DNA from: a virus
Taxonomy: Duplodnaviria > Caudoviricetes
Length of the DNA stretch: 64,000 bases
IMG/VR virus record: IMGVR_UViG_3300046463_000715
Span: 1,868-65,867 of that record
Reading direction: 5' to 3' (one strand)
This document shows positions 22,238 through 54,981 of the stretch, one piece after another. The notes under the pieces are model-generated. The model searched no databases and was not told the DNA's origin. It saw only the letters and a list, made by a program, of their open reading frames with translations. Made by a program: the position numbers and the translations under genes. Position 1 is the first letter of the stretch. Each line of letters begins with the position of its first letter.

Positions 22238-22314
22238 TGGGTGCAGGAGCTGGATTTGAACCAGCGACCTTCTGGTTATGAGCCAGACGAGCTACCTAGC
22301 TGCTCCATCCTGCA
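22238..22314 (-). tRNA. tRNA-Met(CAT), initiator-like
   Basis: TGCAGGA/TCCTGCA acceptor, GAGC/GCTC D stem, TCTGG-CTCATAA-CCAGA, GCTGG-TTCAAAT-CCAGC, encoded CCA. Confidence 0.93.
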
Positions 22315-24887: not shown

Positions 24888-25015
24888 TCAATCGCGCCCG
24901 GGAATCGAACCCAGTCCTCTCGGTAGGCAGTGGCAATTTTCCCACGGCAACCCAAGTGTGTCGAAGCCACCTGAAGCGAGCGCTCGCCCAGGACGCACAA
25001 CACTGACGCGATTGA
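24888..25015 (-). ncRNA. tRNA-like RNA with extended D and anticodon arms, no CCA
   Basis: TCAATCGCGT/GCGCGATTGA closing stem, CTGGG-TTCGATT-CCCGG T arm, AGGA variable loop. Confidence 0.7.
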
Positions 25016-33575: not shown

Positions 33576-34565
33576 TTATAGTTTCCTGGTAGACGCTCGG
33601 GCCATTCGCCAGAAGTTTCTGATAGAACTCTGATAGAACTGCGCGAACCCTACCACTGTGCCGTTGAGAATCTGTTTCGAAAACTCATCGAACAGCCGCT
33701 GCTTAATCCAGTCGGTCTCCTCGGCCAGGATGTCGGCCTGAATCTCTCTGCAGAGCGGGCCAATGTCCTTGTTCTCGTTCGTCAGCTTACCGGCTTCGCG
33801 CAGGTGCTGAATAGCCTTGAGCCAGCGTGCCTCGGTGCGCAAACAGTTCGTGAGCTTCTCGACAATCTCTTTCGCTCCGTCCTTGCCTGGGTTGCCAGGG
33901 ATAGTTGCGCGCTTCTCTTTGAAAGCAGGCGCGACGATTTTAGCAGTCATCGGGGCCTTCGCTAACCTGTGGTCGAGCGGTGTCGAGCTCTCGGATTCGG
34001 GGTGAACCTTCGAGTAGTTCTTCACCACCACACCCTCGACCTTTACACCACCGAGCTGAGACTCGCGGGAGTGATACTCGCCGAAGCTGTCGAAGTTCGT
34101 AGTCACCGGAAGGTAGCCCTGGTAAAAGACCTGGACCGCTTCGATGCCGAGCTCTGCTGCCCACATTTCACGCGCACCGCGACCGGCGTAGGAGCCATCC
34201 GGCAGTCGGACATCGAACAGCACGAGGTTGTTCTTCGGCACGCGAGAGTAGGCCAGGATGTTGTGCTTCGGCTTCGCGAGATACTCGCATTGAAAGATAA
34301 GGCCTTCGAGGCTGACGGTGTGACTGCTTCTGTAGAGCACCATCTGCACCGCGCCCACGGCGTTGCTGAAGGCCAGCTTAAACATGCCCGGGTCGTTGGG
34401 GTCAATCGGCTGGCCCTTGCTGCGGCACTCAATCTTGCCGTTGACGACACCGAAGCTGAATTGCGAGCCGTCGATTTTCTCCTCGACCTGGACGAGGTCT
34501 TCGAAGATGCAGCTGTTGTGGCGCTGACCTAGCGCGTAGATTTTCGGAATGCTTGGGAGGTTCAT
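33576..34565 (-). CDS. ATP-dependent RNA ligase (Rnl2-like)
   Basis: motif I EEKIDGSQF, III FQCEY, IIIa VLFDV, IV EGVVVK, V AKIV, helical C-domain. Confidence 0.85.
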   Translation of the reverse strand: MNLPSIPKIYALGQRHNSCIFEDLVQVEEKIDGSQFSFGVVNGKIECRSKGQPIDPNDPGMFKLAFSNAVGAVQMVLYRSSHTVSLEGLIFQCEYLAKPKHNILAYSRVPKNNLVLFDVRLPDGSYAGRGAREMWAAELGIEAVQVFYQGYLPVTTNFDSFGEYHSRESQLGGVKVEGVVVKNYSKVHPESESSTPLDHRLAKAPMTAKIVAPAFKEKRATIPGNPGKDGAKEIVEKLTNCLRTEARWLKAIQHLREAGKLTNENKDIGPLCREIQADILAEETDWIKQRLFDEFSKQILNGTVVGFAQFYQSSIRNFWRMARASTRKL

Positions 34566-35250: not shown

Positions 35251-36057
35251 TTACTGAGGGCTACCCAGGGGTTCCCTGGTGCTCTCCGCCGGGAGGTGCG
35301 CAACGTGGCCCGGGTCAATCGCAGGGTCGACCTCGCGCAGCAGTCCGCAGATGATTCGAGAGAATACCCGAGGGGCACTGTCTGCAGCGAGCTGTGCAGA
35401 AGACTCGCCGTCGATGTTCGGCATGAGCTTCGCGAAGTCCACACCCTCGACAAGTCTGGTGATGACATCGGCCAGAGAGTCGAGAGGGATGCGGTAACCC
35501 TTCTGGTAATACTTCAGCACGCGCAGCATCGAACCACCAGCGTCTTCGTTGCGAACTGGGTTGCGGTAGATGAGCCGCTTCCCAGCAACGTCGCAGTAGA
35601 AACGCTCGTCGCACACTGAGTGCCAGTCGGTGCCGGTCCAGCTGAACGCAGCGCAGCAGCAGGTGAAGTCGAAGCTGTCGGCCACGCTCCGGTCCGAGCC
35701 GAAGCTCCAGCGGTGGATGATTTGAATGGTTGGCTTGAAGGCCAGCAACGTGTAGGCGTTGTCGGTCGTCCAGATTCGGTTCAGCTTTTTGCCGTCTTCA
35801 GCGGTGAACTCGTCGCTGCTACTGTCGGGCAAGTCGAAGAGCTCGGCGTTGAGCGTCATCGCCAGGAGCAAAGCCGTCTGCTTGTCCGGGCAGAAGACGT
35901 CGATGTCGTTGATTGGGTCCCCGGCGACGATGGAGCGGAGGAAGCCCCCGCCGACAAAGATTTTGTTAGCCCACTCCGGGCGCTTCATTATTGTCAGAAG
36001 CTGCTTCGGGGTTCGGAGGAGTGCAAACTGCAGGTCGTGATACGTTAGACTGTTCAT
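35251..36057 (-). CDS. CCA-adding / poly(A) polymerase-type nucleotidyltransferase
   Basis: FVGGGFLRS...DIDVF, SFDFT, RVLKYYQKGY. Confidence 0.8.
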   Translation of the reverse strand: MNSLTYHDLQFALLRTPKQLLTIMKRPEWANKIFVGGGFLRSIVAGDPINDIDVFCPDKQTALLLAMTLNAELFDLPDSSSDEFTAEDGKKLNRIWTTDNAYTLLAFKPTIQIIHRWSFGSDRSVADSFDFTCCCAAFSWTGTDWHSVCDERFYCDVAGKRLIYRNPVRNEDAGGSMLRVLKYYQKGYRIPLDSLADVITRLVEGVDFAKLMPNIDGESSAQLAADSAPRVFSRIICGLLREVDPAIDPGHVAHLPAESTREPLGSPQ

Positions 36058-38713: not shown

Positions 38714-39072
38714 ATTCTGTTGTATTTCGAACGGTCCAGGGACTTGTGGTTGTCGTCGGCCCGATTGAACCAGACGGTCTTTACGAAGGCCTCTGAGCCC
38801 ACCGGCGCGCCCAGGACCATGACGAGGTCGAGCTCGTCGCTGTAGGGGAAGCGAGCCACACCCCAAACGGGTTTGCCGTCTTCCATTGTAACCTCGACGA
38901 TGTCGCCGACTTCAAACTCGGCTGAGCCGAACTGCTCGGCGCGTCCGTAGCGGTCAATGTCTGCCTCTTTTTGTGCATGGTATCCCCAGCGCAGGCTGAG
39001 CTTGCTGGCCCAGAGCTGAGCCGCCCCGGCGGGTAGCCCGAGCAGCTTGTGGTAACGTCCGTTTTTAATCAT
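38710..39072 (-). CDS. hypothetical protein
   Basis: VKTVWFNRADDNHKSLDRSKY tail; first gene of the leftward unit. Confidence 0.6.
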   Translation of the reverse strand: MIKNGRYHKLLGLPAGAAQLWASKLSLRWGYHAQKEADIDRYGRAEQFGSAEFEVGDIVEVTMEDGKPVWGVARFPYSDELDLVMVLGAPVGSEAFVKTVWFNRADDNHKSLDRSKYNRI

Positions 39073-39077
39073 GCCTC

Positions 39078-39146
39078 AGCTTACACCCTGGCGCTCCGCA
39101 CGCAAGCCGGAAAATCTACTAACCGTGGCCCCGGGGCTTCCCCTGG
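39078..39146 (-). promoter_or_regulatory. leftward promoter with the 31-bp element
   Basis: CCAGGGGAAGCCCCGGGGCCACGGTTAGTAG-N10-TTGCGT-N16-TAAGCT. Confidence 0.65.
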
Positions 39147-39179
39147 TAGAGGGTCCGTAATCGCTCTGTAAAATAAAGT

Positions 39180-39208
39180 TCGACAACCGGCTTGCCCGGG
39201 CCTATTGT
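39180..39208 (+). promoter_or_regulatory. rightward promoter of the ncRNA cluster
   Basis: AAATAAAG UP-like tract, TCGACA-N17-TATTGT. Confidence 0.6.
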
Positions 39209-39230
39209 GCTCACAGTTCTTTGAGAGTTT

Positions 39231-39421
39231 GAAGTCGGTTGAGGGCAAATCCTCTGCGGGTCAAGCCCGCTAGCATCCGGACCCGTCAGTCCGGAAGGGT
39301 GATGAGCTCAATGTAAATACGCTGCAATGCTGCTGTGGTTTGAGTCCCGCTTGACACCGGGGCAGAGGGCGAGAGCAGAGGGCAGCGGGGAAAAGCAGGG
39401 GATAAGCCCTCAGCCGATTTT
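39231..39421 (+). ncRNA. structured ~190-nt RNA of unknown family
   Basis: 16-bp plus 9-bp closing helices, GGAA-capped hairpin, potential GTCAAG/CTTGAC pseudoknot, flanking T-tracts. Confidence 0.7.
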
Positions 39422-39545
39422 TTCGCCTCAATCGAGGAACCGGTGCCTTGCCTTCAATGGTGACGCAACGAGACAGAAACGGGAGCCGAAAGCTCACGAA
39501 ATTTCTTGGCCGGTTTGCAGGTCGGTAACTGCGGGCGAATTTTAT

Positions 39546-39649
39546 GGTCCCGATAGGCTGAGGCCCGAAACCGCTACACTGGCGGCTGCGACCGAGGGAA
39601 CCGGAACAGGTAGTGCTGACCGGGAGAGGGTTTGAATCCCTCCGGGACT
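39546..39649 (+). ncRNA. tRNA-like RNA with an extended anticodon arm, no CCA
   Basis: GGTCCCG/CGGGACT acceptor, GAGGG-TTTGAAT-CCCTC T arm. Confidence 0.65.
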
Positions 39650-39658
39650 TTTGATTTT

Positions 39659-39793
39659 ATGGCACACAAACGAAAAGACACATTGGTCGCTCCGAAGCAG
39701 TGGTGGAAGCACCTGCGCGACTGGAAGCGACCGCAGAACAAGGCCGAGAGGCGGGCAGCGAAACTAAAATTTGACAAGCAAAACGACCTGTGA
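39659..39793 (+). CDS. small basic protein (44 aa, MAHKRK...WWKHLR...)
   Basis: TTTT-ATG start directly after the tRNA-like element. Confidence 0.55.
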   Translation: MAHKRKDTLVAPKQWWKHLRDWKRPQNKAERRAAKLKFDKQNDL

Positions 39794-39804
39794 GAAGTTC
39801 AGGC

Positions 39805-40011
39805 ATGGAAAATAAGTTTTATAGGCGGGTGGACAAGTTCGTCTACCACCGTCTCTGGCTCGTGAGGCCGGACACCGGCAGCACCTGGACCTGGGAATGG
39901 AACGGCGGCTTCTGGGAGCGCGCTACGCCCGACTTCGACCTGTTCAACGAGAAGGTCTCCAGGCCTCTGACGGTCGAGCGCTTGAAAATCGAAATCAAAC
40001 ACCGCTTATGA
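39805..40011 (+). CDS. hypothetical protein
   Basis: ATG 5 nt after TTGACA-N17-GAAGTT. Confidence 0.55.
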   Translation: MENKFYRRVDKFVYHRLWLVRPDTGSTWTWEWNGGFWERATPDFDLFNEKVSRPLTVERLKIEIKHRL

Positions 40012-40181
40012 GAATTGTGCGAGTCAGAATCAGTGGCTGGGCTATCCAGGAAGGTGACCGGTGGTTGTGTTGGTCAATTCCGCCGCACTTTGGTTGGACT
40101 GAATACCCTGAGCTGGCCCACGTTTTCAAGCGGCTCTCCGAGGCCGAGGCCTGGGTGCTCAATAATTCCAAGAAAGATTAA
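40008..40181 (+). CDS. hypothetical protein
   Basis: ATGA overlap. Confidence 0.45.
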   Translation: MRIVRVRISGWAIQEGDRWLCWSIPPHFGWTEYPELAHVFKRLSEAEAWVLNNSKKD

Positions 40182-40315
40182 CATGATTGCAACTGTGGAC
40201 GGATTCGAATGTTTGAACAGTATGCCCTGGCTCGTGCCAGTCGGCCTGCTCGTAATTGTGCTGGTCGTAAAAGTCCTGCTTGACTTCTTGTTCGACTAGT
40301 GCGAAAGGTATCAGC

Positions 40316-40651
40316 ATGAAAGTAAAAATTGGCGAAATCTTCCGAAGGTCCTGGGGCTACGACCAGACCAACGTCGACTACTTCCAGGTGGTCGCTCTCA
40401 AGGCGAAGACGGTTGTCGTTCGCGAAATCAATCACCGTGAAGTCCCGGGCTCGAACCAGGGCGGCATGAGCTGCAACGTCGTCCCGGTGAAGGACAGCTT
40501 CGACGAGAGCAAGCTGCCTCGTCAGGTCCGTATCGCTGTCGGCCACGAGGGCTCGCCGGTGCTCGTCGTCGGACCGAGTAAATGGGCGCAGCTCGTGCCC
40601 GCAAACACCGATGGAACCTACCCCCATTCCTATTGCTCCTGGTATGCTTAA
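40316..40651 (+). CDS. hypothetical protein
   Basis: SWGYDQTNVDYFQV motif. Confidence 0.7.
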   Translation: MKVKIGEIFRRSWGYDQTNVDYFQVVALKAKTVVVREINHREVPGSNQGGMSCNVVPVKDSFDESKLPRQVRIAVGHEGSPVLVVGPSKWAQLVPANTDGTYPHSYCSWYA

Positions 40652-54231: not shown

Positions 54232-54527
54232 AAGCATCTGACGAAACACGCTCAAAAATCACCGCACTGTTTGAACAGTTCAAACCAGCACTCGATGGCT
54301 ACCACGACTACGCGCAGCGGGTCACCGCACTCTCAGAAGAATACCATAAGGCACGCTTTGCTGAGAGCTTTTCTACTCCCGTCGAGGAGCTCACCCTTTT
54401 GGCGCAACTCCACGCCCATCAAACACCGAAGACGCTGGACGAATTTCTGGCGAAGCTTCCGGCAGGTGTGGCAGTCAAACGCATTATCCACGACCGCAAA
54501 AATTACACTTACTATATCTATGTCTGA
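54228..54527 (+). CDS. hypothetical protein
   Basis: ATGA overlap. Confidence 0.5.
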   Translation: MKASDETRSKITALFEQFKPALDGYHDYAQRVTALSEEYHKARFAESFSTPVEELTLLAQLHAHQTPKTLDEFLAKLPAGVAVKRIIHDRKNYTYYIYV

Positions 54528-54981
54528 CGCAAAAATTCCCGACACCGCAAACCCCAAAGACGCGCAGGCGCGCAAAAAAGTCCCCATCGGTCTCGTCCCT
54601 CCAGCCCTCGTCATTGGCGCGGCTGAAGCACTCGCAGACGGAGCCCGGAAGTATGGGGCTTACAACTGGCGCGACATCGCGATTCAGTATTCGGTCTACA
54701 TCGAAGCGATTGAGCGGCACACCCTGGCGCTCAAAGACGGCGAAGACATCGCAGCTGATTCTCTGATTCACCACGTCAAGCACATCGCTGCCGGTTGCGC
54801 CATTATCCTGGACGCCCTCGGGCACGGCAACCTTATCGACGACCGCAAGCCCGGACCTGGGGCTAAGCTCCTCGCCGAGGCCCACCAGAAGCGTCTGCAG
54901 GCCCTCCAAGCAGCTCCGCCCGCCCCGAAAGCCGTTGAAACGGTCCAGGGCAAGACCTTCGACAGCGGAGAAGGCTGGTAA
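54520..54981 (+). CDS. dATP/dGTP diphosphohydrolase (DUF5664-like)
   Basis: NPKD...LVPP...GARKYGAYNWR...RH...GED...H..H. Confidence 0.85.
   Translation: MSDAKIPDTANPKDAQARKKVPIGLVPPALVIGAAEALADGARKYGAYNWRDIAIQYSVYIEAIERHTLALKDGEDIAADSLIHHVKHIAAGCAIILDALGHGNLIDDRKPGPGAKLLAEAHQKRLQALQAAPPAPKAVETVQGKTFDSGEGW

Follow-up and report, generated by a model that had tools for sequence, protein, structure and literature searches.

The DNA analysed here, which we call the window, is the 64-kb stretch comprising bases 1868-65867 of a 65,867-bp IMG/VR record (IMGVR_UViG_3300046463_000715) from a phage of the class Caudoviricetes. Its gene blocks diverge, leftward from 39072 and rightward from 39659, and the right end of the 586-bp spacer between them is formed by a 104-nt element that resembles a transfer RNA (tRNA) at its two ends and is followed at once by a small open reading frame (ORF). 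A preliminary description had taken this element for one of two independently arisen tRNA mimics in the genome. We find that it appears instead to derive from a tRNA gene, closest to tRNA-Arg(ACG), and that the ORF behind it belongs to a family associated with tRNA arrays in other phages. The parts of the element and the adjoining ORF are as follows (all coordinates are those of the window):

39546-39649, plus strand: the whole element, 104 nt
39546-39552, plus strand: 5′ acceptor strand GGTCCCG, pairing at 7 of 7 positions with 39643-39649, with a G1:T72 wobble
39556-39565, plus strand: hairpin GGC-TGAG-GCC at the D position, 3 bp with a 4-nt loop, pair probability 0.84-0.85; not a canonical D arm
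39566-39625, plus strand: non-tRNA core, folding in the minimum free energy (MFE) structure into two hairpins, 39566-39590 and 39601-39623
39626-39642, plus strand: T arm GAGGG-TTTGAAT-CCCTC, pair probability 0.91-0.92, directly adjoining the acceptor
39643-39649, plus strand: 3′ acceptor strand CGGGACT, closing the 7-pair acceptor
39650-39658, plus strand: discriminator T and U-rich 9-nt trailer TTTGATTTT, reaching the start codon; no CCA
39659-39793, plus strand: basic ORF of 44 aa, of the MAHKRKDTL..WWKHLR family, starting 9 nt after the acceptor stem

When the 104 nt are folded alone, the acceptor pairs have probabilities of 0.72-1.0, and the sequence together with the fold probabilities bears out much of the geometry that had been described: the 7-bp acceptor GGTCCCG/CGGGACT stacks on the T arm, a GGC-TGAG-GCC hairpin stands at the D position, and the 3′ end reads TTT instead of CCA. 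The elongated arm that was said to replace the anticodon arm (GCTAC/GTAGT, CTG/CAG, CGG/CCG) did not hold up: a fold carrying it reaches −31.5 kcal/mol against −41.0 kcal/mol for the MFE structure, 9.5 kcal/mol worse, and its pair probability is 0.01.

The two end helices are non-random, and a chance match is unlikely. We scanned the window with a descriptor consisting of a wobble-free 5-bp T stem, a T loop of the form T[TG][CT][GA]A.. and a 7/7 acceptor with at most one wobble, its 5′ strand lying 30-200 nt upstream. Two sites were returned, the true tRNA-Met of this phage and the element, whereas 100 dinucleotide-preserving block shuffles gave a mean of 0.02 sites per window, with any site at all in 2 of 100.

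With canonical tRNAs the element shares the 7-bp acceptor stacked on a 5-bp T stem and a 7-nt T loop (T54...A58); its TTTGAAT loop has a T at the usual C56 position, as tRNA-Arg(ACG) genes do. It has neither an anticodon arm of 5 bp and a 7-nt loop with U33 nor a D arm of the G18G19 type; the MFE structure has a triloop hairpin and the 3-bp/4-nt D hairpin. The core of the D, anticodon and variable regions thus appears to be lost, leaving an element that, as we read it, cannot decode. The sole tRNA call of default ARAGORN in the window was the tRNA-Met at 22238-22314, which was also the sole Rfam match at gathering scores; the element was left uncalled by both. In the covariance-model search that had been suggested as a check, the tRNA model RF00005 gave no match in 38800-40400 even at E-values up to 10. 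The best Rfam model, and the sole one to reach the element, was that of mascRNA-menRNA (RF01684), at 18.2 bits (E = 1.5), below its gathering score of 42.5, and Rfam returned nothing beyond sub-threshold noise around the element, around a second tRNA-like element of the window described below, or around a look-alike in a distant relative (L063). Transfer-messenger RNA (tmRNA) was found neither by ARAGORN (default, or -m -ps80) nor by Rfam, a tag reading frame within the 104 nt not having been searched for. The element is neither a canonical tRNA, nor a tmRNA, nor a member of a known RNA family.

When its thresholds were lowered to 80% and introns were permitted, ARAGORN did model the element as a tRNA-Ala(ggc) with a 23-nt insert (39546-39650) and the second element as a tRNA-Ser(cga) with a 24-nt insert, as would be expected of non-canonical tRNAs with a short insert in the anticodon loop. 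These intron models carry no information, because the same settings also called controls with shuffled interiors, 238 of 300 for the element and 300 of 300 for the other. We rejected a tRNA with an insert on the strength of this control; no bulge-helix-bulge was seen around the putative insert, by inspection only.

The ancestry of the ends became clear from a comparison with real tRNAs. An exact scan of the genomes of 185,579 species with the 21-mer 39628-39648 gave eight loci, all in Bacteroidota metagenome-assembled genomes (MAGs) and all eight the 3′ end of a tRNA-Arg(ACG). These bacterial genes read GGTTCCG...GGGGG-TTTGAAT-CCCTC-CGGGACC, then A and C, with no CCA; their T loop opens with the same unusual TTT as that of the element, and the 5′ acceptor strand of the element is identical to their GGTTCCG at six of seven positions. 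In the 24 stem positions there are three differences, all of which preserve pairing (T:G to C-G, G:T to A-T, and G-C to G:T). The T loop TTTGATT occurs in two tRNA-Arg(ACG) genes from phage tRNA arrays. Over 33 end positions (9 + 24), with 249 tRNAs compared, the element matches the eight tRNA-Arg(ACG) at 28; the runners-up are again tRNA-Arg (tct at 24/33, tcg at 23/33), and none of the other 241 tRNAs exceeds 24.

Given the 21/21 nt and 6/7 acceptor matches, we regard the element as a probable tRNA-gene derivative and not as an independent mimic. Of the earlier reading, a tRNA-like, non-random element that is not decodable remains, and independent invention does not, since the ends follow the tRNA-Arg(ACG) lineage. 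Nor is the missing CCA a special mark, because the closest real tRNA-Arg genes encode none either; the 3′ end of the element therefore looks like an ordinary substrate for RNase Z and the CCA-adding enzyme. We also considered the eight MAGs as a pointer to the host and rejected them, as they have only one weak match (26%) to window genes and a G+C content of 35-50%, against 57% for the phage.

A 21-nt identity to a tRNA 3′ end also resembles the core of an attP site copied from a host tRNA. We rejected such a core: Pfam and PHROG scans of 32, 24 and 38 ORFs, some small ORFs lying outside them, gave no integrase or recombinase, the structural genes are of the lytic SU10 type, and a 5′ acceptor strand is not expected in attP. 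An attP-type copy, a non-canonical tRNA (for which default ARAGORN and the Rfam tRNA model offer nothing) and a chance match (at 0.02 sites expected per shuffled window) form a group of explanations that we consider highly improbable.

The ORF that starts 9 nt behind the acceptor stem gives the element its context. It has 32 homologues of 40-73 aa and 55-95% identity, with an almost invariant core, MAHKRKDTL...WWKHLR; no family name for it came from Pfam, PHROGs, GenBank phages (two queries) or the protein atlas. IMG/VR holds 123 relatives of this ORF family, and our locus counts cover 80 of them (L182-L261). A genuine tRNA on the same strand lies 17-23 nt before the ORF in ten of the 80 loci (L188, L189, L195, L197, L199-L201, L203, L216 and L253), namely tRNA-Cys in eight, tRNA-Gln in one and, in L253, a tRNA-Arg(ACG) with the TTTGATT loop. 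Within 2.5 kb of the ORF there is at least one tRNA in 23 of the 80 loci and at least three in 16, and tRNA density around the ORF is about 20-fold higher than in loci anchored on the helicase (185 per 0.371 Mb vs 48 per 1.93 Mb). In three loci (L197, L216, L206) the next tRNA begins 10-14 nt after the ORF, making the ORF a tRNA-punctuated cistron whose mRNA must, given this spacing, be excised by tRNA processing in such arrays. These loci differ from ours: the array tRNAs are canonical (71-78 nt), have an encoded CCA and are followed by a Shine-Dalgarno-like aaggag before the ORF, whereas the element has 104 nt, no anticodon arm or CCA, and a 9-nt spacer only, in which no Shine-Dalgarno-like motif was found. 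The same ORF family directly downstream and the same acceptor/T-arm architecture are what they have in common. In the window, as we read it, the tRNA-then-ORF order of the arrays recurs, the tRNA being apparently reduced to its acceptor/T-arm shell. In the literature (full-text search; subscription journals and supplements not covered) we found no description of the small ORF family or of this type of phage element. In most of the 80 loci a 33-nt segment of the ORF (39697-39729) is 81-97% identical as DNA, and foreign high-depth contigs in soil sequencing runs matched it too.

We tentatively propose that the element is a tRNA-Arg-derived pseudo-tRNA that keeps a minihelix recognizable by RNase P and RNase Z, and that it acts as a processing signal for the ORF in the manner of a t-element. 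It would head a small mobile cassette, "tRNA + 44-aa basic ORF", that is part of tRNA arrays in other phages. The cassette would be transcribed with the rightward operon, and host tRNA-maturation enzymes would still read the acceptor/T-arm minihelix: RNase P would cleave between 39545 and 39546, and the second cut, by RNase Z or a different 3′ endonuclease, would fall just past the discriminator at 39650. The products would be a tRNA-like RNA of ~105 nt, able to receive CCA, and a small-ORF mRNA with a short U-rich 5′ leader, presumably to the benefit of ORF expression. By analogy with the plant-mitochondrial t-element, this would be tRNA-type punctuation of an mRNA. The features that have been kept are those that tRNA end-processing enzymes read, namely the 12-bp acceptor/T stack, the T loop and a U-rich, non-CCA trailer; a G-A in the D-like loop opposite the T-loop U is possibly a further one. 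Because of these retained features, and of the ORF's habit of lying between tRNAs, a processing signal is the best single explanation.

Several features of the surrounding spacer and of a related strain bear on this proposal:

39073-39545, no strand: non-coding divergent intergenic leader, from the gene map and the 1-nt indels in a related strain
39180-39208: promoter-like site in the divergent leader
39513-39536, plus strand: terminator-like hairpin with a GAATTTTAT tail, immediately 5′ of the element, lying in the stretch that is conserved in the X24 strain
39543-39876, no strand: strain-variable cassette (element, small ORF and 83 nt), from the X24 contig alignment

The X24 contig (21,244 nt, from a sequencing run) belongs to a strain ~94% identical to the phage. 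It is 90-95% identical on both flanks of the cassette, and 450 other letters replace the 334 nt of 39543-39876; just to the left, 39419-39542 is conserved with three differences. The left boundary of the cassette (39542/39543) falls 3 nt before the first base of the element. Since this breakpoint is so placed and the segment holds both, element and ORF travel together; since the segment is replaced in a related strain, the cassette is accessory and mobile. Single-base indels between the strains indicate that the leader left of the cassette is non-coding. A 15-nt direct repeat (39559-39573 and 39863-39877, 13/15 identical) has its second copy ending exactly at the right cassette boundary; 27 of 1000 shuffles gave an alignment score at least as high, which makes its significance marginal.

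A number of observations weigh against a retained processing signal. In the ~94% strain no copy of the element is recognizable at a likeness of 80% or above, which makes its role dispensable, and none was found in three related complete or near-complete phage records (G001, G002, G003), from which the small ORF is likewise missing. G001 is 77% identical to the phage in the major capsid protein, 69% in the portal, 70% in the terminase and 53-54% in the helicase; G002 and G003 are more distant. The conservation of both helices in related phages, on which the preliminary description had made its reading depend, is thus not seen. The total folding energy is unexceptional (z = −1.10; 32 of 200 shuffles fold at least as well), and in transcript contexts of 200-590 nt the acceptor probability falls to 0.08-0.33 and that of the T arm to 0.19-0.36, a shifted hairpin (39620-39646) followed by a U-run competing with the T arm. 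As to ancestry, a search of 401 Bacteroidota genomes with the 24-mer at up to three mismatches gave hits in six, comprising one tRNA-Arg(ACG), three tRNA-Lys(CTT), one tRNA-Asp and one tmRNA; with tRNA-Lys(CTT) within 2-3 mismatches, the assignment to tRNA-Arg is not exclusive. Finally, 57 of the 80 ORF loci have no tRNA within 2.5 kb, so the ORF needs none, and a possible degenerate tRNA-like element, with six of seven acceptor pairs, stands 14 nt upstream of the ORF in just one more locus (L186). In a related 74-kb contig (L182) the ORF lies elsewhere, behind an exonuclease gene and without a tRNA-like element.

The shifted hairpin raises the question of whether the structure is an intrinsic terminator or attenuator, in which 39620-39646 and the following ACTTTTGATTTT act on transcription entering the rightward operon and the tRNA look is incidental ancestry. 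This hairpin (−13.9 kcal/mol) is followed after 2 nt by the U-run, in long contexts it is a competitor of the tRNA-like fold, and the terminator-like hairpin at 39513-39536 stands just upstream. Its stability is nevertheless ordinary (z = −0.48; 62 of 200 shuffles fold at least as well), a consensus terminator scan made no call at 39620-39646, and a terminator would not account for the matching 5′ acceptor strand, which lies ~90 nt further upstream. We consider a terminator very improbable.

A second alternative is that of a neutral relic: a tRNA that arrived with the small-ORF cassette from a phage with a tRNA array, was inactivated by an internal rearrangement and is now decaying, its helices reflecting no more than recency. 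Such a history would fit the absence from relatives and the replacement in a near-identical strain, the unremarkable fold energy, an interior whose tRNA features are no better than chance, and the 57 loci in which the ORF does without any tRNA. In the same spacer, moreover, GGTTTGAGTCCC at 39337-39348 is a T-loop-like motif that has the element's unusual TTT but lacks stems to pair; it is possibly what is left of an older tRNA after decay, which would suggest that tRNA debris accumulates here. Against a relic, gradual decay would be expected to spare neither the interior nor the 31 positions of the helices and T loop, yet 12 of 12 pairs are intact and an unbroken 21 nt agree exactly with real tRNAs; the second element repeats the layout, together with a 9-nt U-rich spacer before the start codon. 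The 73-nt interior cannot be aligned to any tRNA (a real tRNA-Arg has ~23 nt from D arm to T arm), and an interior motif, CGAGGGAACCGG, is not enriched, with 12 matches at up to two mismatches vs 8.8 expected. That both helices are perfectly kept while this interior is unalignable is the remaining argument for constraint. A relic, though doubtful in itself, is nearly as likely as a processing signal, and the earlier statement that the element reflects "selection rather than decay" is not supported.

The second element, just referred to, has the following position and parts:

24891-25012, minus strand: other tRNA-like element, with acceptor ATCGCGT/GCGCGAT and T arm CTGGG-TTCGATT-CCCGG

It is most likely the other mimic alluded to in the preliminary description. 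As in the element before the 44-aa ORF, a 9-nt U-rich spacer follows and leads to the start codon, here the GTG (24881) of a 76-aa ORF for which no homologue was found. Default ARAGORN and Rfam leave it uncalled, and a phage tRNA-Trp is the nearest match to its ends (26 of 33 positions). A second element of similar layout therefore exists, as had been claimed. Two such shells in 64 kb, vs 0.34 expected under relaxed criteria, fit either a repeated loss of array tRNAs or a shared use in punctuation. Elements made of an acceptor plus a T arm also occur in distant helicase relatives (L063/L155, 15484-15589, 106 nt; L034, 4802-4914, 113 nt), with an ATG within ~17 nt after them; ARAGORN calls neither, and Rfam makes no call for L063.

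The presence of two elements without an anticodon arm in a 66-kb genome, against ~0.02-0.34 expected by chance, would also suit a selected, trans-acting mimic or decoy, in which the minihelix RNA, alone or with the 44-aa protein, titrates a host factor that reads the acceptor/T-arm ends of tRNAs; a tRNA-targeting defence nuclease or a nucleotidyltransferase toxin would be candidate targets. Phage tRNAs have been proposed, according to PMC10264068, to counter tRNA-targeting defences, which favours such a role, and an RNA ligase (PF09414) and a nucleotidyltransferase-like gene lie 3.5-6 kb away, as would fit a host with RNA-damaging defences. We think a decoy unlikely, given the lack of conservation in relatives and of a known family match (mascRNA, the best in Rfam, scoring 18.2 vs 42.5 bits), and given that descent from an ordinary tRNA and linkage to an ORF of tRNA arrays explain its presence without a new function. 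Less probable still is a functional pair of minihelix RNA and 44-aa protein, in which the protein would be a small factor that binds tRNA ends and normally lies within tRNA arrays, and a phage without an array would keep a non-decoding partner for it. The pair might protect or hijack tRNA 3′-end metabolism (RNase Z, the CCA-adding enzyme) or blunt a defence aimed at the acceptor end, with 24891-25012 as another instance.

The wider genome is that of a phage distant from those in culture (best polymerase identity 27%). G+C content across the window is 55-59%. In Pfam and PHROG scans of the window ORFs the capsid, adaptor and portal proteins fall into SU10 families; other genes include a large terminase, a family-A DNA polymerase, a helicase, nucleases, the RNA ligase and one tRNA-Met. 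Near-identical DNA is present in 24 soil and rhizosphere DNA runs, which include no RNA run. Direct DNA similarity to the element region gave no match in GenBank phages, nor in IMG/VR with two exact patterns. As locus queries, a 228-aa neighbour protein and the helicase found no close relatives: tblastn with the former gave one weak match, in a Pseudomonas phage, and alignment-based scans with the latter reached at best 54% in IMG/VR and 58% in metagenomes among the matches listed, although helicase relatives of 76-89% identity are present in the protein database.

Some further observations concern the same region and genome. In G001, the closest complete relative and the record behind L002, direct terminal repeats are located within the region that corresponds to the divergent spacer, and the physical genome ends of this phage group may be near the element region. 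A 26-nt inverted repeat (39232-39257 and 39395-39420, 81% complementary) encloses 137 nt of the leader; its arms are unchanged in the ~94% strain, and the enclosed part has many substitutions and 1-nt indels. The repeat (39232-39420) may represent a structured leader RNA. Shine-Dalgarno-like tetramers stand at only 15 of 58 putative gene starts, many of the others having A/T-rich leaders. The RNA ligase (PF09414, 1.2e-15) and the nucleotidyltransferase-like protein, which has PHROG matches only, are encoded at 33576-34565 and 35251-36057, both on the minus strand, so that genes of RNA-repair type coexist with one tRNA and two tRNA-like shells. An ORF at 54271-54981 on the plus strand contains the N-terminal domain of a dATP/dGTP diphosphohydrolase (PF18909, 2.4e-24), which hints at a pathway for modified-base DNA.

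For annotation, the lesson is that a "tRNA mimic" spotted by eye is best checked first against the ends of real tRNAs, a comparison that here turned a supposed convergent mimic into a tRNA derivative. The small protein family linked to tRNA arrays is a more promising lead than the element itself: it is a testable candidate for a tRNA-related phage function, independently of whether the minihelix is cleaved.

Non-decoding derivatives of tRNAs are known from phages and bacteria. The tRNA cluster of phage T4 gives rise to the small stable "species 1/2" RNAs. In Bacillus cereus, tRNA-Other is described as a pseudo-tRNA or tRNA look-alike (PMC3399842). Like the element, these pseudo-tRNAs are tRNA-derived and do not decode, yet they are transcribed and processed, as the element may be. 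The mascRNA/MEN-beta RNAs (RF01684) similarly have an acceptor and T arm that are read by RNase P and RNase Z, receive CCA and do not decode; they form a eukaryotic family, of which the element, at 18.2 bits, is not a member. In the tRNA-like domain of tmRNA and in the tRNA-like module of YrlA, a bacterial Y RNA (PMC4201824), the acceptor and T arm are likewise mimicked, the D region is reduced and a different helix occupies the position of the anticodon arm; the element differs from tmRNA in lacking a G3:U70 pair and any ARAGORN or Rfam match.

The closest parallel is with the t-elements of plant mitochondria, described as having a conserved T arm and a non-canonical cloverleaf and as serving as RNase P/RNase Z processing signals for mRNA ends (PMC1920247). 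According to the same source, cutting by these enzymes has been proposed and in part shown, and the released RNA gains non-encoded C and A residues. T-elements and the phage element alike keep the T arm and acceptor stem within a non-canonical cloverleaf and adjoin an mRNA end or ORF (PMC1920247). They come from another domain of life and have no sequence relation to the element; the analogy is one of possible mode and not of membership. The element joins a known kind, the pseudo-tRNA or tRNA-like processing element, and is no demonstrated mimic. If RNase P and RNase Z still cleave its minihelix, the element would be a bacteriophage counterpart of the organellar t-elements, and phages could then retain only the processing-competent shell of a tRNA for the punctuation of an operon.

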